Shown piece by piece: positions 3,109 through 36,433 of a DNA stretch of 42,002 bases; position 1 is the first letter of the stretch, and the number at the start of each line of letters is the position of its first letter. Made by a program: the position numbers and the translations under genes. The notes below the pieces were generated by a model. The model was not told the DNA's origin. It saw only the letters and a program-made list of their open reading frames with translations, and made no database searches. The stretch lies in IMG/VR virus record IMGVR_UViG_2563366918_000005, one strand, 5' to 3'. This DNA comes from a virus (taxonomy: Duplodnaviria; Heunggongvirae; Uroviricota; Caudoviricetes).

Positions 3109-3406
3109 GTTTAGACCTCGATATTTTGAAAATCTGAACAACGTTACCGCGTGTTTTAATAACCGCGGCAAGCATGACAGCGTTGATAATGACCTCAGAT
3201 AAATCCACAGCCATTGGCGTGCGTAACCAGATTGCATAGACGACACGAACAGGAATACTGGCCGCAGCAACAATAAGGAAATAAGCAAGCCACCCTCCCC
3301 ATCTTCGATGTTGAGAGCCGTTACGCCGGAATGTGACAACGCGAATTGCTATGCCAGTACAAATAACTGCATTGGTGATAAGCAAAAAAAACTCATGCGT
3401 TACCAT
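3098..3406 (-). CDS. holin-like small membrane protein
   Basis: 102 aa with hydrophobic helices ([43 protein letters not shown]) and a charged C-tail. SD GGAG 8 nt upstream. Overlaps the endolysin start by 11 nt. Confidence 0.7.
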
Positions 3407-7079: not shown

Positions 7080-7172
7080 TTTACATCGCACTCCTCTTGT
7101 GCCATAGTAATCGGGCACTGGCAAAATCCAGTGCCGGGATTGGTCTCCCGGATTACTACAGAGGCACATATG

Positions 7173-7192
7173 CCGCATAAGCGGTTTTTTTT
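7173..7192 (+). terminator. probable rho-independent terminator (short stem, U8 tail)
   Basis: CCGC-ataa-GCGG followed by TTTTTTTT (7185-7192). The stem is only 4 bp, so strength is uncertain. Confidence 0.45.
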
Positions 7193-7346
7193 ATGTGTAA
7201 AGCGCACCTATTCTATGGTGGGCTGTGTGGGGGCACCGAAAGGTGCGCCGGGTTCCTTTGTAGCCGGTAAGACCAACTCTGCACAGTTCACCACCATCTG
7301 ATTGGTCTCAGCGGTGGTGATTAACCTAACTACAAAGGTGATCGCC

Positions 7347-8039
7347 ATGAATACCAAACCTTCCATCTTTTCCTTTGAGTCATCCTGCCAGATCCGTATG
7401 TTCATGATTGACGGAGAACCTTGGTTTGTCACCAAAGATGTGTGCAATGCTTTGAATATTGATGTTACACAAGCGAGAAAACTTGATAAAAAAGGCTGGA
7501 ACAAAAAGGGGCTGTATTCAATACAGACCCCTGGTGGAATACAAGAACTATCCATCGTTTCAGAATCAGGTCTCTACATCCTTATTCTGCGTTGCAAAGA
7601 GGCAATGACTGAGGGAACGAGAGCATTCAGATTTCTTGAATGGGTTACAGGCGAGGTTCTTCCTCAGATCCGCCGCACCGGAAGTTACATTAAAAACTCG
7701 CTACCGCAGGAAGAACGCATAAAGATGGTTGCCGACCAGGTAGCCAACGCCACGGCGTCAGCAGTAATGCAGGCGATGAAGATAGAGAACAAAACCTACA
7801 ACGCCCCGCTGAAGCCCGGCTACCGCAGCCTGATTCATTCCCCGTCTGGTGTTCTCGGCCTGACGGAGAACTCACTGCTGATGAATCTGCTGAACCAGTT
7901 ACAGGAAGACGGGCACGACGTATCGGGCGCGGCGGCGGAGCTGACCACCATGTTCTGCTACATCGTCGGTGTGAGCAAATGCCTGCGTGATATCCAGACG
8001 CACGCGGAGTACATCAACGACAAAGCAGGGTTCTTCTGA
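7347..8039 (+). CDS. Bro-N domain antirepressor-like protein
   Basis: 230 aa from MNTKPSIFSFES (SD AAGGTGA). N-terminal Bro-N signature (IRMFMIDGEPWFVTKDVCNALNI ... ESGLYILILR ... FLEWVTGEVLPQIRRTGSY). C-terminal ~70 aa paralogous to the 6775-7032 product. Confidence 0.8.
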   Translation: MNTKPSIFSFESSCQIRMFMIDGEPWFVTKDVCNALNIDVTQARKLDKKGWNKKGLYSIQTPGGIQELSIVSESGLYILILRCKEAMTEGTRAFRFLEWVTGEVLPQIRRTGSYIKNSLPQEERIKMVADQVANATASAVMQAMKIENKTYNAPLKPGYRSLIHSPSGVLGLTENSLLMNLLNQLQEDGHDVSGAAAELTTMFCYIVGVSKCLRDIQTHAEYINDKAGFF

Positions 8040-23352: not shown

Positions 23353-23649
23353 TCACTCCTGTTCACTGGCCTCTTTGGCCATCTTCAAATACTGTTCAGG
23401 GCAATGCGCCATAACGCGCTGAAACAGTTCCAGCGCCAGATTGCGTTGCCCCTCATTAAACGCCATTGCCATAGCGTCCATCGGTGAGATAGCGGAAAAC
23501 ACACGGCCTTTCTCCAGCACCGACCAGACAACGCGACGCCCCTGTTCACTGCTCATGACAAAGCGAATGTCATCAATTTCACGCTGCGCCATGTCACGTT
23601 GCTTACGGGCGTTTTCTTCTTTCAGTTGATCGTCTTCGTAATCTGTCAT
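23353..23649 (-). CDS. hypothetical protein between portal and scaffold
   Basis: 98 aa. ATGA coupling to the portal stop. Confidence 0.55.
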   Translation of the reverse strand: MTDYEDDQLKEENARKQRDMAQREIDDIRFVMSSEQGRRVVWSVLEKGRVFSAISPMDAMAMAFNEGQRNLALELFQRVMAHCPEQYLKMAKEASEQE

Positions 23650-25325
23650 TGTGATTGCCCACCCTGACCACTAACTGCATTCGCCATAGCTGACAACACA
23701 CTCGGATCCGAAGTTTTAGCTTCGCTTAGCGTCTTGGCACCCTGTGCCGCAGCCATCCCCATCGCCATCATTTGTTGCTGCTGTTGCTGCTGTGCCCGTT
23801 GCTGGCGAGCCTGCTCAACCTGTTCCTGCGGAACAATGACGGTTGGAGACACTCCAGACATATCAGCGAATGCATCGATTGCCTGATCAACGTTGAGTTT
23901 GTCGAGAGCTTCTGGTTTCGCTTGCGCAAGTTGACCAATGAAGTTGACCGTAGACGCCAGACTGGACAGGCCGATAGACTTCTGCGCCTGAGCCATGACG
24001 GAAATGTATTCGACCTTCAGGGGCATACCTTCCATCGCGTCAGGCGGGGGCGGCAGCATGTTTTTACGCACCATCATCGAGAAAGAGCGGTCAATGAGAG
24101 GATTAAGACATTCGTCGTTCAGACGCTCCAGAACCGGCCCCAACATCAGAAGTTTTTCTTCTTTCATTTCGATCACCGCTTCAACAGGCATCGAGCGGGT
24201 ATTGATGTTCTGCAACATCATGAACAGATCGACAAAGTAGGCGCTGTTAATGATTTGACGAGTGTCCTGAATGTCTGCCACCAAATCTGCTGTACTGGGG
24301 TTAACCAGATAAGCAGGCCTGAAGCCATCCTGACCAGTAATCTGATCGATATACGTGATGTCGCCAGGAAGAAGGGAGGCGCGCTGATTCTTGAGGGAAG
24401 TCGGAGCAACCATCGGCGGATTGGTGGCTTTATCAATCAACTGCGACTTGCGCTTCTGGAGAAGCTGCAATGCCTTAACAGATCCAAGCGCCAGCATACC
24501 CGGGCATGATGATCCATAAACATCTTCGCCGTTAACTTCCCAGCGCGGAGCCATAATTGGAAACTCATCGAATCCGGACTCACGCAACAACTTGTCGTTA
24601 TCGCCACCAACCTCGTAATAAACCGATTTGAATGGCTTGTTCTTGCTATCCAGCTTCGATGTATCGCGGTCAATGTTCGGGTAAACCGAATGCATCACTT
24701 CAATCCACTTCTCGTAGGTGCCGCTTTCCCACATGCTTTTTACGGATTCGCTGACGTTATTTAGCCCGAACTCCTGAACAAGCTGACGAACAGTCATAGA
24801 GAACTTGCGAAAACAGGTGTCCACACTGCCACGAGGTGAGTTAGCCAGGTAGTAACTGCCTATCGGGAATGGCATTGTGCGAATGATGTCCTCGTCATCC
24901 TCCAGCACTGCCATTGCACCAGTGCTGTATGTGCCGAGGCTTCCGTATAACTGCGGCAGCGACTGATAGAGATTCGACTTATTGAACATATCGTTCATGC
25001 GGTTCTGCACCGCCTCAAGCCACAACTTAACAGGGCCATAATCCATCATTTCAGGATCTGGCGTAGCCAGGCGAAACCACGGACGCGCGGGGCTTGTGAT
25101 GCCTGACATCATGCCGCTGGCGAGAGTGCGCGCCGCCATAGTCCCGGTCGAATCAATAATGCGTGTATTGCGTCGATCGTTACGGTTGACCTCAGAAGTC
25201 AGAAAGCGGGAACCACGTGGGTTGATGTAATCACTCAACTCGCGCCAGTGCGGCTCGAACGACTGACGCTCGCTTTCAAGTTGTGCGAACTGTTTGTTCA
25301 ATCGCTCTTTAGTTGTTTCCGCCAT
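23646..25325 (-). CDS. portal protein (podovirus head-to-tail connector type)
   Basis: 559 aa. Position and size fit. Gln-rich C-terminus (QQRAQQQQQQQMMAMGMAAAQG) is typical of T7-like connectors. Confidence 0.8.
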   Translation of the reverse strand: MAETTKERLNKQFAQLESERQSFEPHWRELSDYINPRGSRFLTSEVNRNDRRNTRIIDSTGTMAARTLASGMMSGITSPARPWFRLATPDPEMMDYGPVKLWLEAVQNRMNDMFNKSNLYQSLPQLYGSLGTYSTGAMAVLEDDEDIIRTMPFPIGSYYLANSPRGSVDTCFRKFSMTVRQLVQEFGLNNVSESVKSMWESGTYEKWIEVMHSVYPNIDRDTSKLDSKNKPFKSVYYEVGGDNDKLLRESGFDEFPIMAPRWEVNGEDVYGSSCPGMLALGSVKALQLLQKRKSQLIDKATNPPMVAPTSLKNQRASLLPGDITYIDQITGQDGFRPAYLVNPSTADLVADIQDTRQIINSAYFVDLFMMLQNINTRSMPVEAVIEMKEEKLLMLGPVLERLNDECLNPLIDRSFSMMVRKNMLPPPPDAMEGMPLKVEYISVMAQAQKSIGLSSLASTVNFIGQLAQAKPEALDKLNVDQAIDAFADMSGVSPTVIVPQEQVEQARQQRAQQQQQQQMMAMGMAAAQGAKTLSEAKTSDPSVLSAMANAVSGQGGQSQ

Positions 25326-25339
25326 TTCAATGACTCCGG

Positions 25340-25546
25340 TTACTGACCAAGCAGCGTTTTACCGCTGGTATTAGCGGTTGATGTGTCGCCCTGAGAACCG
25401 GTAAGCAGCGTAGAACTACGACCAGCAGCAGCGCGACGGCGACGAGTTTCTTCGTCGCGGGCATCAACAACGGCGGCATCCTGCTCCTGTGGTGCTGCCT
25501 GAACTTCTGGTGTTGCAGGCACTGATGGTGAGCTACCCATGCACAT
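25340..25546 (-). CDS. small hypothetical protein upstream of portal
   Basis: 68 aa. SD GGAG with the same 12-nt initiation region (CGGAGTCATTGA) as the portal gene. Confidence 0.45.
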   Translation of the reverse strand: MCMGSSPSVPATPEVQAAPQEQDAAVVDARDEETRRRRAAAGRSSTLLTGSQGDTSTANTSGKTLLGQ

Positions 25547-25614
25547 ATCAATGACTCCGTACGCAATTAAATTATTACCAATTTAACCACATATGATTTA
25601 TTTATCGTAGATAG

Positions 25615-25652
25615 TTGACATTTAACGCACAAATTATTACCTTTCAGGTAAG
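25615..25652 (+). promoter_or_regulatory. candidate sigma70 promoter TTGACA-17-TACCTT overlapped by operator ATTACCTTTCAGGTAAG (25636-25652)
   Basis: Perfect -35 at 25615-25620. The -10 keeps only T1, A2 and T6. The operator covers -10/+1. Points towards the tRNA and the IS1-split gene. Confidence 0.55.
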
Positions 25653-25973
25653 CAAAGAGTTCATTCCGGTTATTAACCTGACTGGCTTGTCGTTAAATTG
25701 AACAGGTGGAGTGAGCTTTTATTTTGAGCAGTACGGCGTATGGCACATGCGCCGATAGCGGTCTGGATACGTTTAAGGGGCACCCTCCCTTGCTCGGGCA
25801 AACGAACCAGGTAGCCGGAATGTGCAAGTCGAGCGGTTTTATTCCGCGCACGGGGATTCACCATCCCGGCGATTCGGTGTGACGCCTCGGAAGAGACGAG
25901 GGTACAACGATGAGAGCATTTATGGAGCCGCGACAAAGTGTGGCGCCTTAACAGGCTAAGTGCTCTCAGCGTT

Positions 25974-26050
25974 GTGGCATTAGCTCAGTTGGACAGAGCA
26001 ACCGCCTTCTAAGCGGTTGGTCGCAGGTTCGAATCCTGCATGCCACGCCA
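25974..26050 (+). tRNA. tRNA-Arg (anticodon UCU, reads AGA)
   Basis: 77 nt. Acceptor GTGGCAT/ATGCCAC, D-arm GCTC/GAGC, anticodon stem ACCGC/GCGGT with loop CTTCTAA (TCT at 26008-26010), T-arm GCAGG-TTCGAAT-CCTGC, discriminator G, encoded CCA. Resembles E. coli argU. Confidence 0.93.
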
Positions 26051-26093
26051 GAATCACGCCTAAGGACCGTGATGCCAGAAGTTCCAGGTGCTT

Positions 26094-26135
26094 GGCGGTG
26101 ATAGTTTCCCTTGAAGGACTATCACCGCCCTTTTT
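26094..26135 (+). terminator. strong rho-independent terminator after the tRNA
   Basis: 12-bp stem GGCGGTGATAGT / ACTATCACCGCC, 12-nt loop, then CTTTTT. Confidence 0.8.
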
Positions 26136-26213
26136 ACAGCAGGACGCCATTGCGATGACTTCATGCTGTAAACCCGTGCAGCCACGGAAGGCATAACTCA
26201 TTGCTTCCAGTTC

Positions 26214-26237
26214 GCCCGGTTCGCCGGGCATTTTTTT
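26214..26237 (+). terminator. second rho-independent terminator
   Basis: GCCCGG-ttcg-CCGGGC-A-TTTTTTT. Confidence 0.7.
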
Positions 26238-26252
26238 GCTTGATGACCGCAA

Positions 26253-26269
26253 ATTACCTTAAAGGTATA
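26253..26269. promoter_or_regulatory. operator-like site ATTACCTTAAAGGTATA overlapping a TATAAT hexamer (26266-26271)
   Basis: Left half perfect, right half GGTATA. -35-like ATGACC at 26243-26248, 17-nt spacer. Confidence 0.5.
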
Positions 26270-26551
26270 ATCATGAAAAACTTCAAGGTAATTAGCATGT
26301 TTGAATCGTTCAAAGAGCTGTTTTTATCTACTGCCAATACTGCCGTGAATCGAGCCAAAAACCCTGTGCTTGGTGCTTTTGTTATGTCCTGGTGCGCCTT
26401 CAACTGGAAATCAATTCTTTATCTATTTTTTAGCAAATCAAACATAATAGATAAAATTTCATATATCTCAGATAACAGCACATGGAAAACTGTTATGTTT
26501 TATCCATGCTTATCTGTAATTGCTATCTGCTGCCTAGGTAATGACTCCAAC

Positions 26552-27055
26552 TTACTGATAGTGTTTTATGTTCAGATAATGCCCGATGACCTTGTCATGC
26601 AGCTCCACCGATTTTGAGAACGACAGTGACTTCCGTCCCAGCCTTGCCAGATGTTGTCTCAGATTCAGGTTATGCCGCTCAATTCGCTGAGTGTAACGCT
26701 TGCTGATTACGTGCAGCTTTCCCTTCAGGCGGGATTCATACAGCGGCCAGCCATCCGTCATCCATACCACGACCTCAAAGGCCGACAGCAGGCTTAGAAG
26801 ACGCTCCAGTGTGGCCAGAGTGCGTTCACCGAATACGTGCGCAACAACCGTCTTCCGGAGCCTGTCATACGCGTAAAACAGCCAGCGCTGGCGCGATTTA
26901 GCCCCGACGTATCCCCACTGTTCGTCCATTTCCGCGCAGACGATGACGTCACTGCCCGGCTGTATGCGCGAGGTTACCGACTGCGGCCTGAGTTTTTTAA
27001 ATGGCGGAAAATCGTGTTGAGGCCAACGCCCATAATGCGGGCGGTTGCCCGGCAT
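26552..27055 (-). CDS. insB: IS1 InsB reading frame (expressed as InsAB-prime by -1 frameshift)
   Basis: 167-aa ORF with ...[21 protein letters not shown]...[11 protein letters not shown]..., recognised as IS1 InsB. Confidence 0.93.
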
Positions 27056-27249
27056 CCAACGCCATTCATGGCCATATCAATGATTTTCTGGTGCGTACCG
27101 GGTTGAGAAGCGGTGTAAGTGAACTGCAGTTGCCATGTTTTACGGCAGTGAGAGCAGAGATAGCGCTGATGTCCGGCGGTGCTTTTGCCGTTACGCACCA
27201 CCCCGTCAGTAGCTGAACAGGAGGGACAGCTGATAGAAACAGAAGCCAC
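26974..27249 (-). CDS. insA: IS1 InsA
   Basis: 91 aa [43 protein letters not shown]..., recognised as IS1 InsA. Confidence 0.95.
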
Positions 27250-27864
27250 TGGAGCACCTCAAAAACACCATCATACACTAAATCAGTAAGTTGGCAGCAT
27301 CACCTGCTGCCTATTACCATGGGTAAACAATATCATTAACGTATGGCAAGCAAAGCCTCTTGATAATAATGACTCAATCGAAAATCACCTGAAGGCAAGA
27401 AAAATCCAGCGTGAAACAAGACTGCAGAGGTTATTGGCTAAAAAAGATGTTACATACGACAAAGTTAAGACTGGCGCGGAAAAAGACATCCAAGAGATGA
27501 AAGAAGAGATTATTCGATCAAAGAATAGTATGGGGGAATTGACTGCCGAGTTGAAAGCTAAAGATGACGAATTGAGATCCGCCAGTGCTCAGTTAGCAGC
27601 TCTAAATCATTCATTAAAAGAGATATCGGAAACTCTTGGAAGAATGAATGAGGCATATAAGACCCTCCAAAATGATTTCGACGAATACAAACTCAAATAC
27701 CCTGAAAAATCTCAAATAAAAAGCCTTGAACTTGGCAACGGCCAAACAATTAGCAACTTTTTGGAGCAACACAACTTATCCGGATTAAAATCTGGTAAGC
27801 CAAACGTTTTTAATAACTTTGGTGTTCTATCTGGATTATCAGGTTTCGAGGATAAAAATAAAGA

Positions 27865-29340
27865 CTAAGCATATGGATCGTACTCGGTAAGCGCCTTGCC
27901 TTGCTGGTTCTGCTGCCCGGGAAGTCGCAGGCGCTTTGACACCGGGAAAGCAAACGTCAGCAGTAGCGCATCGCCTTTACCAGGCGAACGCCCAAGTCGT
28001 TCTTTGATATCTTCCTTCGGTTCGATAACGATTTTACCGTCCACGCGAACTTTGTACTCTGCCGCCGACAGATCGTCCGCTGTTTCCTGGTCATCCAGCA
28101 TCCCGCCCAACCTCAGCCATGTCTTGCATGAGTTGAACATCTCCCCGCGCTTGTTGAGCATCTGAGGGTCAGTTGACGCACCACCGAACGGAACAAGTTG
28201 CCATGTGCGCCCCCAGCCGTCACCGATTGACTTCAGACCGGTTCCGTAACCGAAGTCGATGAACACCGCGTCAGCCTGATACTGGTCTTCAAAGTCAGCG
28301 ATACGCTTCGCCATAATCAGATCGTCAGTGGTCTTGTTGCCAGTCCATAGCACCTTACTATGCAACCCCTGCCGCAGGTATATCACCGCGTCATCAACGC
28401 CTGAATATGCCGGGTCAACACCGATTATCACCGGAGCATGTGCCACCTGCGCAGCGGTTACCACCCGTTTCATTGCCTCATCAGTAAGACCGGTAGGGAT
28501 AAACTGCAATTCAGATGCATCAGGGAATATGCCGCGCACACGGATTTTAACGAAGTCGCTGTCTTCCCCGTAGTCATCAACCCATTTCTGCAACTGCTGT
28601 TTGTTAGTACCTTCCACCGTCCGGCTGTCAATCTGCGCAGTTTTCCAGCGGTGTTTGTATTTGCGGAAACATTCGCGAAAACGCCCGGTATTACGTGTAG
28701 GGTTTCCGAACGCCACCCAGATAATCTCAGTGTCTTCGTCCGTAAGCGCACCCTCAGCAACTTCCCACACCAGATCCGCAATGTTCGACGCTTCATCGAA
28801 TACCACGATGATGCGTTTGCGCTCGTTGTGTAGTCCGGCGAATGCCTCAGTGTTGTGCTCAGACCAGGGGATTGCGTCAGCTCGCCACCGCTTGTCGTGC
28901 CCAGGATCATTGCTGTACATCGCGGTAGCGGTACAGGTAAACCAGTCTTTCGTGATAGCAAGGTTCGACCACTTGATAATTTCCGGCCAGGTCTTCGTTC
29001 GTAGCTGGTTGTCGGTGTTGGCGGTCACCACGACCTTACAATCCTCGCAAGTGGACATGCCCCAGTTGATCAGCATTGAGATGAATGCGGATTTACCAAT
29101 ACCGTGACCAGAAGCACGTGCCAGCATAAGCGGCTGATAACGCGTCTCTGGATTCTGCAGGTGATCACGTATCTCTCGGAACGCATCGGCCTGCCACTGA
29201 CGTGGGCCGGTAGCATGTGCCAGTTCAGTCCCCTCTTCCCCCCACGGGAACGCATAGAGGGCATAGCCAAGCGGATCGTGAGTGAACCCTGCAATATCCT
29301 CGATTAACTGCTCTTCAGGAGATAACGCTGTATCTGTCAC
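27865..29340 (-). CDS. terminase large subunit
   Basis: 491 aa, GTG start. Walker A SGHGIGKS. Acidic motif IIVVFDEAS. Follows the small-subunit gene with a 4-nt overlap. Confidence 0.88.
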   Translation of the reverse strand: MTDTALSPEEQLIEDIAGFTHDPLGYALYAFPWGEEGTELAHATGPRQWQADAFREIRDHLQNPETRYQPLMLARASGHGIGKSAFISMLINWGMSTCEDCKVVVTANTDNQLRTKTWPEIIKWSNLAITKDWFTCTATAMYSNDPGHDKRWRADAIPWSEHNTEAFAGLHNERKRIIVVFDEASNIADLVWEVAEGALTDEDTEIIWVAFGNPTRNTGRFRECFRKYKHRWKTAQIDSRTVEGTNKQQLQKWVDDYGEDSDFVKIRVRGIFPDASELQFIPTGLTDEAMKRVVTAAQVAHAPVIIGVDPAYSGVDDAVIYLRQGLHSKVLWTGNKTTDDLIMAKRIADFEDQYQADAVFIDFGYGTGLKSIGDGWGRTWQLVPFGGASTDPQMLNKRGEMFNSCKTWLRLGGMLDDQETADDLSAAEYKVRVDGKIVIEPKEDIKERLGRSPGKGDALLLTFAFPVSKRLRLPGQQNQQGKALTEYDPYA

Positions 29341-35848: not shown

Positions 35849-36433
35849 ATGAAAAGTATCCAGGACGTCCGCAGGCAAAATCTCAACGACTTGATCGACC
35901 GTGAATTCAATGGTGTTCAGACGCGGATGGCAGAAAAACTTGGAACTCAGGCAAATCTGGTAAACCGCTGGGCTCTTGGCAAGAAGGTTATCGGCGACCA
36001 GGTTGCACGAAAAATTGAAGCTGCCGCCAATAAACCCCGTAACTGGCTTGATATTGATCGCTCGCTTTCTCAGGAGGGTTTTCAGCCTGTCGGCCCGAGC
36101 GATATAGGTCAGCTGGCGGCTCACAACCTGGAACGCTGGATGAGCGAAAGCCGCGACCTTTCAACGCAGGGAAAACTACACCGCGCATCCGGCGTCGCCC
36201 AGGTGACAATCAGCCGCCTGTTAAACAATGAGGTCAGCGTTTCCATTTCCACCCTGGAGAATGTTGCATCCGCATTCGGGCGTCACGGCTATGAATTACT
36301 GATTCACCCGCACGACCCTGCGACCATCAACTATGATCGCTCGCGCTACGCATTGTTACCCGAAACCGAGAAAGCAAAGATCGAAAGTTACATTGAATTT
36401 GTCATCAACCAGAACGAAAAAAACAAACAATAA
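35849..36433 (+). CDS. prophage repressor with two tandem HTH (XRE-type) domains and no S24 peptidase domain
   Basis: 194 aa. HTH 1 is TRMAEKLGTQANLVNRWALG. HTH 2 is KLHRASGVAQVTISRLLNN. Only ~35 aa follow the second HTH. No SD before the ATG (possibly leaderless). Confidence 0.75.
   Translation: MKSIQDVRRQNLNDLIDREFNGVQTRMAEKLGTQANLVNRWALGKKVIGDQVARKIEAAANKPRNWLDIDRSLSQEGFQPVGPSDIGQLAAHNLERWMSESRDLSTQGKLHRASGVAQVTISRLLNNEVSVSISTLENVASAFGRHGYELLIHPHDPATINYDRSRYALLPETEKAKIESYIEFVINQNEKNKQ

Follow-up and report, generated by a model that had tools for sequence, protein, structure and literature searches.

A conserved, structured non-coding RNA beside the tRNA-Arg gene of a phiV10-like prophage and its relatives in temperate enterobacterial phages

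Introduction

Several phage RNAs are known to be processed by RNase P, such as the precursor of the C4 antisense RNA of P1 and P7 and the stable RNAs species 1 and 2 that come from the tRNA cluster of T4. The ribosomal RNA (rrn) operons are built from a boxA leader, RNase III stems around the rRNA, a spacer tRNA and tandem terminators, and in MALAT1/mascRNA a tRNA-like structure downstream lets RNase P form the 3' end of a non-coding RNA. The N-less lambdoid phage HK022 carries put (putL and putR), a cis-acting antiterminator RNA that promotes read-through of downstream terminators by binding the beta' zinc-binding domain of RNA polymerase. The put RNA is about 70 nucleotides (nt) long with two stem-loops and is present in both early operons (PMC9378689). 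In this study we analysed a 42,002-nt stretch of Caudoviricetes DNA (IMG/VR record IMGVR_UViG_2563366918_000005; hereafter the window) and in particular its positions 25653-25973, which an earlier reading made from the letters alone (the sequence-only reading) had proposed to hold a structured RNA transcribed together with, and released by processing of, the adjoining tRNA. The most conserved part of this region, a core RNA of about 190 nt, is the subject of this report.

Like the C4 precursor and the T4 RNAs, this element is a non-coding RNA that would be made in an early phage transcript together with a tRNA or tRNA-like structure and would receive its ends from tRNA processing, a step that we propose here; as expected of a tRNA-linked phage RNA, it lies on the same strand as, and directly adjoins, a tRNA or a tRNA-like structure. 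However, it has no sequence or structure similarity to these RNAs, its core is larger and pseudoknotted, and the Rfam C4 and isrK models match elsewhere in the window. The unit also resembles an rrn operon in its promoter, its long helices around a structured RNA, its adjoining tRNA, its strong terminators and its boxA-like 3' strands, but no Rfam rRNA model matches it and its boxA-like motif is base-paired and not universally retained. The likeness to MALAT1/mascRNA, namely a tRNA or a non-tRNA cloverleaf directly downstream, is an analogy of mechanism only; that system is eukaryotic, and no triple-helix stabiliser is evident here. As in HK022, a structured RNA stands just past pL in N-less lambdoid phages with terminators downstream, but the core is about 190 nt long, has at least five helices and two candidate pseudoknots, is single-copy and optional, and also occurs in P1-like phages and Uetakeviruses. 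Phage non-coding RNAs tied to tRNA processing are known as a kind; what appears to be new is this family, with its fold and its prevalence.

Results

The core is a conserved, structured RNA

Positions 25653-25973 specify a structured, strongly conserved, non-coding RNA on the + strand, the same strand as the tRNA. The coordinates of the sequence-only reading, the two - strand open reading frames (ORFs) that it listed (25673-25936 and 25980-26252, the latter crossing the tRNA) and the four complementary segments that it named are all present in the sequence, and its proposal of a structured non-coding RNA on the tRNA strand is borne out by covariation, by G-U pairs on the + strand and by the lack of a conserved ORF. 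It has to be revised in that the region is not one RNA fold but three modules, namely a 5' hairpin (module A), the core and a long 3' helix (module B). The core has the following parts.

25731-25918, + strand: core RNA, about 190 nt, delimited by alignment A2 and by covariance model R1 (146.9 bits, E = 2e-46, one copy in the window)
25734-25754, + strand: P1, hairpin CGGCG 25734-25738 / CGCCG 25750-25754 with loop UAUGGCACAUG, 98.8% paired
25743-25825, + strand: PK1, candidate pseudoknot of GCACAU 25743-25748 in the P1 loop with AUGUGC 25820-25825, complementary in 34/34 relatives
25758-25815, + strand: P2, 25758-25759 and 25762-25765 with 25808-25811 and 25814-25815, from pair counts
25830-25852, + strand: P3, hypervariable hairpin, 14-25 nt in relatives, from alignment A2 and its length spectrum
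25853-25879, + strand: P4, hairpin GGGA 25853-25856 / UCCC 25864-25867 with loop UUCACCA, together with PK2, which reaches to 25879
25885-25901, + strand: P6, hairpin CCUCG / CGAGG with near-invariant loop GAAGAGA, from pair counts

Alignment A2 holds 34 diverse cores and was made with MAFFT with no structural information used. In this alignment invariant blocks alternate with hairpins that differ in sequence and length, and about 60 core positions are invariant. It is this comparison of homologues, of the kind that the sequence-only reading had suggested, that decides the matter. Under the pseudoknotted core model 99.1% of 1019 pair cells are standard pairs versus 91.3% in column shuffles (0/500), and a shift of the 3' partners by 1-3 columns lowers the paired share to 27-46%. 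Compensatory changes on both sides are seen in ten pairs, a number reached by 1/500 shuffles, and the covariation score is 0.245 versus 0.100. RNAalifold and the model concur on most helices; at P1, RNAalifold gives preference to a long-range partner for the 3' strand, in partial competition with the hairpin.

The individual helices show how this support is distributed. In P1 the pair 8-20 (A2 columns) is without exception either G-C (18 sequences) or A-U (16). P2, which encloses a variable apical domain (25766-25807) with a recurrent YCCUUG motif, has C-G in 25 and U-A in 9 at pair 34-92, and G-C in 32 and A-U in 2 at pair 35-91. Three of the four P4 pairs covary (GGGA/UCCC, ACGA/UCGU, UUGA/UCAA, GCGA/UCGC), and PK2, in which CACC of the P4 loop (25859-25862) pairs with GGUG 25876-25879, is AACC/GGUU in three sequences. 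The segments CCTCG 25885-25889 / CGAGG 25897-25901 of the sequence-only reading form a real helix, P6, with three of five pairs covarying (CCUGG/CCAGG, GCCGG/CCGGC, CUCGG/CCGGG), and its GAGAGCA 25912-25918 / TGCTCTC 25961-25967 is the centre of the 18-20 bp helix of module B, which forms in more than 40 variants. Its pairing of GCACAT 25743-25748 with ATGTGC 25820-25825 corresponds to PK1; complementarity is kept in all 34 relatives, but both sides are invariant, so that the pairing is compatible with the data rather than proven. The fourth helix, CGGAAT 25816-25821 / ATTCCG 25841-25846, has to be given up, as it is not conserved, its 3' arm lies in the hypervariable hairpin and it clashes with GCACAT/ATGTGC.

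The strand can be assigned from the pairs themselves. Invariant or frequent G-U pairs occur in P1, P2 and P4, including an invariant U-G pair in P2, and since these would be A-C mismatches on the opposite strand, they argue for the + strand. The minimum free energy (MFE) of the region against shuffles gives z = -2.75 on the + strand and -1.98 on the - strand, and its GC content is 0.533 compared with 0.486 for the whole window.

A protein-coding origin was considered as well. The region contains an 87-codon - strand ORF, and some records annotate a 'hypothetical protein' over the element, which might suggest a decayed gene with stems arising by chance. However, no open frame is common to the core in the 34 relatives and 7/34 have stops in every one of the six frames; the remaining relatives are open in differing frames, and the lengths of the variable segments cover every residue modulo 3, so that indels are not multiples of three. 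An intact coding gene in homologues, which would have spoken for such a pseudogene, was sought in six frames and none is conserved. Together with the compensatory covariation and the G-U pairs on the + strand, these results refute the coding or chance explanation, which we now regard as having practically no likelihood. The 13-codon mini-ORF at 25910 pointed out in the sequence-only reading fares no better: it lies inside the module B stem, and its ATG is missing in many relatives (CAACAGGTAAGAGCA).

The core does not match described RNA families

The Rfam check proposed for 25653-25973 was run with the 4227 covariance models of Rfam 15 and gave no match over these positions at gathering thresholds or even at E<10; in six diverse relatives nothing was found over the core at E<5. 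Likenesses to 4.5S RNA, 5S rRNA, the 16S 3' end and group II domain V, noticed by eye, were dropped, no Rfam model being in support. The searchable literature of 8 million papers contained no match to an invariant 14-mer of the core (as DNA, RNA or reverse complement) and no description of the core RNA under the topics phiV10, put-like RNA, ban operon, tRNA-like prophage RNA and epsilon15 RNase III. Phage vB_EcoP_ZX5 is 99.7% identical to the window here, and the paper describing it names only the tRNA at this locus (PMC9782041). A relationship to put was rejected: model R1 has no match in the complete HK022 genome, its best hit having E = 2 at an unrelated place, and no GTTGTGGTGAAT motif is present; because HK022 holds no copy, the core is not a put homologue. 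The core family is thus apparently undescribed.

The core is found in three unrelated types of temperate phage

BLAST shows that the window is a prophage of the phiV10/epsilon15-like group of temperate podoviruses (genus Uetakevirus), and that 25540-26260 has 99% identity to phiV10, TL-2011b and the O157 typing phages 9 and 10. In a sensitive BLAST search 92 phage records matched, and positions 25733-25920, sometimes to 25973, show 70-84% identity in phages otherwise unrelated to the window. These include the SfV-like lambdoids cdtI, mEp460, 2H10 and Ayreon, Stx2c and Stx2a converting phages, and P7 and other P1-like phages; the core is also present in other Uetakeviruses of Salmonella, Klebsiella and Enterobacter. 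The invariant 19-mer GGTAGCCGGAATGTGCAAG is found in at least 120 IMG/VR stretches, and these matches together with other collected loci amount to at least 105 distinct core sequences. Among species-representative genomes the 19-mer marks 24 loci, all in Enterobacteriaceae except for two metagenome-assembled genomes labelled Bacillota and Oscillospiraceae. Complete Escherichia coli genomes carry the core in 1840 of 5426 cases (34%), with up to four copies each, roughly 2500 copies in all and 554 places on plasmids, and the E. coli matches listed are all unannotated except for one 'hypothetical protein'.

The family occupies three kinds of location: the portal/terminase gap of Uetakeviruses, the pL leader downstream of cI in SfV-like lambdoids, and the ban operon of P1 and P7. 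The lambdoid core is some 55 nt downstream of a putative pL with two TTGCAT...GCAA operator-like repeats, right after cI and its terminator, and in P7 it lies 18 nt past a tRNA-Ile, within the C1-controlled ban operon. The core is always in sense orientation to the surrounding transcription. Model R1 finds one copy per phage in the window and in the mEp460, cdtI, Stx2c, Stx2a and P7 loci, with no second copy in any of them, and BLAST likewise gives one place per record.

A survey of 60 non-redundant sampled loci, reaching 600 nt past the core, found strong terminator-like hairpins followed by a U-tract in 52/60 on the sense strand and in 8/60 on the antisense strand. The first downstream ORF usually begins just past this terminator, a layout that fits a self-contained RNA gene and an antitermination-dependent leader alike; in P7 no terminator lies between core and ban.

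The P7 ban operon also has two more candidate structured RNAs with Rfam matches just under threshold, at 1852-1936 and 2049-2164 of the P7 locus (L004), one tRNA-Sec-like (46.6 bits, cut-off 47) and one STnc100-like (43 bits, cut-off 47).

The core is flanked by long helices and by a tRNA or cloverleaf

In the window the portal-side operon and the large terminase gene are separated by a gap in which the region lies. The + strand of this gap carries the promoter, the 320-nt stretch, tRNA-Arg(UCU), two intrinsic terminators and then a cargo ORF, whose ATG is at 26274, after the end of T2 (26237); in epsilon15 the first ORF starts 15 nt past T2. The features of the gap and its borders are listed below.

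23646-25325, - strand: portal gene
25340-25546, - strand: 68-aa ORF
25615-25651, + strand: promoter with overlapping operator; -35 TTGACA 25615-25620, 17-nt spacer, -10 TACCTT 25638-25643
25655-25720, + strand: module A, 5' hairpin with closing stem AAAGAGUUCAUUCC / GGAGUGAGCUUUU and conserved internal GUCGUUAAAU, from the MFE fold
25673-25936, - strand: 87-codon ORF, from the ORF list
25905-25974, + strand: module B, long helix CAACGAUGAGAGCAUUU 25905-25921 / AAGUGCUCUCAGCGUUG 25958-25974 with a variable insert
25974-26050, + strand: tRNA-Arg, anticodon UCU (TCT in DNA), CCA encoded; ARAGORN, Rfam tRNA 73.3 bits
25980-26252, - strand: ORF running through the tRNA, from the ORF list
26094-26135, + strand: intrinsic terminator T1, 14-bp stem (26094-26129) followed by CUUUUU, from the terminator scan
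26214-26237, + strand: intrinsic terminator T2, stem 26214-26229, end at 26237, from the terminator scan
27865-29340, - strand: large terminase gene

The stem of module A covaries among Uetakeviruses, being AAAGCGCGCUUC/GGAGCGCGCUUU in Tyrion, GAAAGCGCAC/GUGCGCUUC in Klebsiella phages and AAAACACGCAUC/GGUGUGUGUUUU in another relative (L157), and its equivalent in the GenBank record of epsilon15 is annotated as an 'RNaseIII / mRNA processing' site. In some lambdoids module A-type hairpins stand 3' of the core, which indicates that the modules shuffle. The helix of module B has 18-20 bp and -22 to -30 kcal/mol in more than 40 distinct sequence variants, and the insert is 0-160 nt long. Module B ends on nucleotide 1 of tRNA-Arg, and since the stretch stops exactly there, an RNase P cut at the 5' end of the tRNA would set the 3' end of the upstream RNA.

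The link to a tRNA drawn in the sequence-only reading stands for the window, where the RNA adjoins tRNA-Arg on the same strand, but it does not extend to the family: near most members there is no genuine tRNA, and the P7 core has its tRNA upstream. Only two groups have a genuine tRNA next to the core, the Uetakeviruses with tRNA-Arg downstream and the P1-like phages with tRNA-Ile upstream, and in the roughly 50 loci that have one it is always on the strand of the core. In lambdoids and tRNA-less Uetakeviruses the position of the tRNA is taken by a cloverleaf-like element, in which an acceptor-like stem of 7-10 bp (GUGGUGA...UCACCAC) is combined with a D-arm-like hairpin and with another hairpin that adjoins the 3' acceptor strand; the sequence of the element, GUUGUGGUGAAU - GCGCAGGCUGAUGCGC ... 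GCCGG...CCGGUCACCACAAC, is found at 3233-3378 of the mEp460 locus (L002) and also in Tyrion (L006), BUCT554 (L012) and the lambdoid L187, and it is not called a tRNA by ARAGORN or Rfam. That a tRNA or a cloverleaf occupies the same place supports the suggestion that RNase P would set the 3' end of the upstream RNA. The terminator after the core in mEp460 and BUCT554 is homologous to T1, and because the cloverleaf takes the tRNA's place and is followed by this terminator, core, module B, tRNA or cloverleaf, and terminator move as one unit. In some lambdoids, e.g. L187, the cloverleaf comes directly after pL and the core is absent, and the cloverleaf may be a conserved RNA module in its own right within the early-left leader.

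A reading of the 3' side as a boxA/boxB (nut) site was weakened on inspection. The boxA-like GUGCUCUC of the module B 3' strand is paired inside the 18-20 bp helix and is replaced in some variants, and the 'boxB-like' hairpin is the D-arm of the tRNA-like cloverleaf. In two IMG/VR lambdoids module B is replaced by a short hairpin and a perfect rrn-type boxA (UGCUCUUUAACAA in L091, AGCUCUUUAAUAA in L035), which hints that Nus factors act on these leaders.

The promoter overlaps a repressor-type palindrome

The perfect palindrome TTACCTTTCAGGTAA at 25637-25651 overlaps the promoter, from which transcription would start at about 25650. This layout is kept in Salmonella, Klebsiella and Pseudescherichia relatives. 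A simple promoter scan did not list the promoter at 25615-25643, because its -10 is weak. The palindrome (TTACCTTTCAGGTAA/TTACCTnnnAGGTAA) occurs 18 times in the window versus 1.06 expected, and the equivalent site in the GenBank record of epsilon15 is labelled 'repressor binding site'. The sequence-only reading had spoken of a 'cargo promoter'; this label is misleading, as a perfect repressor-type palindrome overlaps the promoter, which is thus not constitutive. Because the promoter carries this palindrome, annotated as a repressor site in epsilon15, the RNA is probably repressed in the lysogen and made early after induction. The operators and annotation suggest that in all three phage contexts the RNA would be part of a repressor-controlled early transcript.

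The sites of the palindrome TTACCTnnnAGGTAA are 25637-25651, 26254-26268, 6684, 7064, 33410, 33472, 35394, 35779, 36491 and 36553, with 8 weaker ones. Clusters flank an ORF with an HTH_3 domain (35849-36433), and more sites lie near the isrK/C4/antirepressor region; the scattered palindromes are probably the operator set of the prophage repressor, similar to that of P1. A second promoter at 26243-26271 was considered and dropped. Its -10 ends two bases ahead of the ATG of the cargo ORF, for which reason the site is probably just the ribosome-binding region.

The core is dispensable

The well-studied, viable phage epsilon15 (L239, 2109-2320, - strand) has kept module A, but its core breaks off after ~60 nt. 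Everything from there through module B and the tRNA/cloverleaf position, up to and including the 5' arm of T1, was lost in a deletion between similar UUCCCUUGA motifs, and at the junction UUCCCUUGAUG of the P2 loop is joined to a similar motif in the T1 loop. Epsilon15 is therefore a natural knockout of the core RNA. Among lambdoids, 80 IMG/VR loci were compared that share their terminators and have a yfdQ-like early-left gene of 99-100% identity; the core is present in 28/80 and missing in 52/80, the latter having the cloverleaf alone after pL or other short hairpins. Since so many loci with the same gene do without it, the core is an optional insert rather than a required cis element of lambdoid operons.

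Other features of the window

Between T1 and T2 lies a unit of about 100 nt (26136-26240, + strand) that is 75-100% conserved in 35 phage records, those listed being Uetakeviruses, epsilon15 among them, and Klebsiella phages. It contains CAUUGCUUCCAGU, 13 nt identical to the Rfam RyhB consensus, and its 3' end is a GC hairpin followed by U7. The unit is a candidate Hfq-type small RNA or RyhB mimic; with only 18.6 bits (E = 2) it is not a member of the RyhB family by Rfam. The cargo ORF starting at 26274 is split by a complete insertion sequence, IS1 (768 bp, 26537-27304, perfect terminal inverted repeats, InsA/InsB ORFs on the - strand); its 3' part is 27434-27868, and relatives have an uninterrupted ORF of 263 aa. 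The window also has isrK and C4 antisense RNA in tandem (7115-7298, + strand), upstream of a Bro-N antirepressor-like ORF (7302-8039), and STnc490 (1687-1810, - strand), all three exceeding the Rfam gathering scores. C4/isrK also adjoin the core element in mEp460 and Stx2a_1447.

Discussion

The interpretation that we favour, and to which we give a little less than an even chance, is that the core is an early RNA carried by the phage as an accessory, which RNase III and RNase P cut out of the transcript and which targets a conserved host component in trans. Positions from about 25650 to 26135 would then be one early transcription unit, made up of a sigma-70 promoter, module A, the core, module B, tRNA-Arg(UCU) and T1, with T1 marking the end of this promoter-RNA-tRNA unit. 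Upon loss of the repressor the unit would be transcribed; RNase P would cleave at the 5' end of the tRNA, and RNase III (or RNase E) would cleave the flanking hairpins of 18-20 bp, by analogy to the way in which rRNA and spacer tRNAs leave rrn transcripts. The freed, compact and presumably stable core would work in trans, not as an antisense RNA but through binding to a conserved host macromolecule; complementarity to the phage genome, which might have revealed an antisense target, is only at chance level. This interpretation is favoured because the core has many invariant unpaired positions, a compact pseudoknotted fold, no antisense target in the phage, a unit-like organisation and a mosaic, optional distribution. 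In temperate enterobacterial phages the core family has the behaviour of a mobile and optional 'RNA moron'. Several observations speak against a trans-acting RNA, however. The lambdoid core sits in a leader that must be read through for the early-left genes to be expressed, and the cargo ORF of the window and of epsilon15 begins 15-40 nt past the second terminator, with little room for a promoter of its own; both would fit a cis role in read-through. In P7 the core lies about 55 nt upstream of ban with no terminator, more like an element of a 5' untranslated region. PK1, one of the two pseudoknots in the proposed fold, remains a candidate because both its sides never vary and thus offer no test by covariation.

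The main rival is that the core is a processive antiterminator acting in cis, functionally put-like, in which the nascent core binds RNA polymerase and permits read-through of terminators (T1 and T2 here, two before yfdP in lambdoids). The position of the core downstream of an early, repressor-controlled promoter in lambdoids and Uetakeviruses is consistent with this, as are the strong terminators behind most loci with the first ORF right after them (the ATG at 26274 in the window, 15 nt past T2 in epsilon15). Core-bearing lambdoids have no annotated N gene, with none annotated in mEp460 and none among the first downstream ORF clusters, and for N-less relatives an antitermination mediated by RNA has been put forward as a speculation by specialists (PMC12315714). 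BoxA-like sequence is present in the 3' strands of module B, and two variants have a perfect rrn boxA, UGCUCUUUAACAA in one of them, just past the core; against this, the boxA-like GUGCUCUC is otherwise buried in the 18-20 bp helix and its sequence replaced in some variants, which is not the arrangement of a lambda-type nut site, with its single-stranded boxA, boxB hairpin and N gene downstream. Also against antitermination, of the 80 lambdoid loci that share terminators and 99% identical downstream genes, 52 have no core, and epsilon15 is viable with a truncated copy. Unlike put, which is found in both early operons, the core has one copy per phage and none in a pR-type operon, and HK022 shows no similarity to it, neither a core match nor the GTTGTGGTGAAT motif being shared; in P7 the core is 2.4 kb from the promoter, and no terminator lies ahead of ban. 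On balance we consider cis antitermination unlikely.

Less probable still, and distinctly unlikely in our opinion, is a catalytic or processing RNA, either a self-cleaving ribozyme or a leader that binds or chaperones the adjacent tRNA or tRNA-like element, matures it and separates it from the early transcript. About 60 invariant nucleotides outside the covarying helices and two candidate pseudoknots are typical of ribozymes and riboswitches, and a tRNA or tRNA-like cloverleaf adjoins in all three contexts. UGGCA in the P1 loop and AGAGA in the P6 loop presumably resemble the T-loop pentanucleotides by which T-box stem I grips the tRNA elbow. Nevertheless, no Rfam ribozyme or T-box model matches, the tRNA-like element is present without the core in L187, and phage tRNAs elsewhere do without such a leader. 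A riboswitch-like sensor that chooses between termination and read-through at the next terminator would share with the core the leader position, the complex conserved fold and the terminators downstream, but we regard it as very improbable: between the core and the terminator stand variable modules of 0-300 nt and even an entire tRNA gene, so that no expression platform overlaps an aptamer, P7 has no terminator after the core, and the downstream genes are unrelated between contexts. A bolder reading is that the core founds a new functional class of large bacterial or phage RNA, either a ribozyme or an RNA that reprograms a host machine (RNA polymerase, the ribosome/tRNA pool or an RNA-targeting defence nuclease) and is deployed minutes after induction; this we think rather unlikely, though somewhat less so than cis antitermination.

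Large structured RNAs with many invariant positions, pseudoknots and unassigned function are rare, and such RNAs have in the past proved to be ribozymes, riboswitches or partners of key machines. Stx2-converting phages, O157 prophages and P1-like plasmids are among the carriers of the core in the best-studied bacterium, E. coli, 34% of whose complete genomes have it, and its recognition removes several spurious 'hypothetical proteins' from annotation. The core also marks the early-left leader of N-less lambdoids. As a defined and easily deletable element with natural controls that do without it, such as epsilon15 and many lambdoids, the core makes possible roles in early phage development, tRNA use and counter-defence open to experiment.

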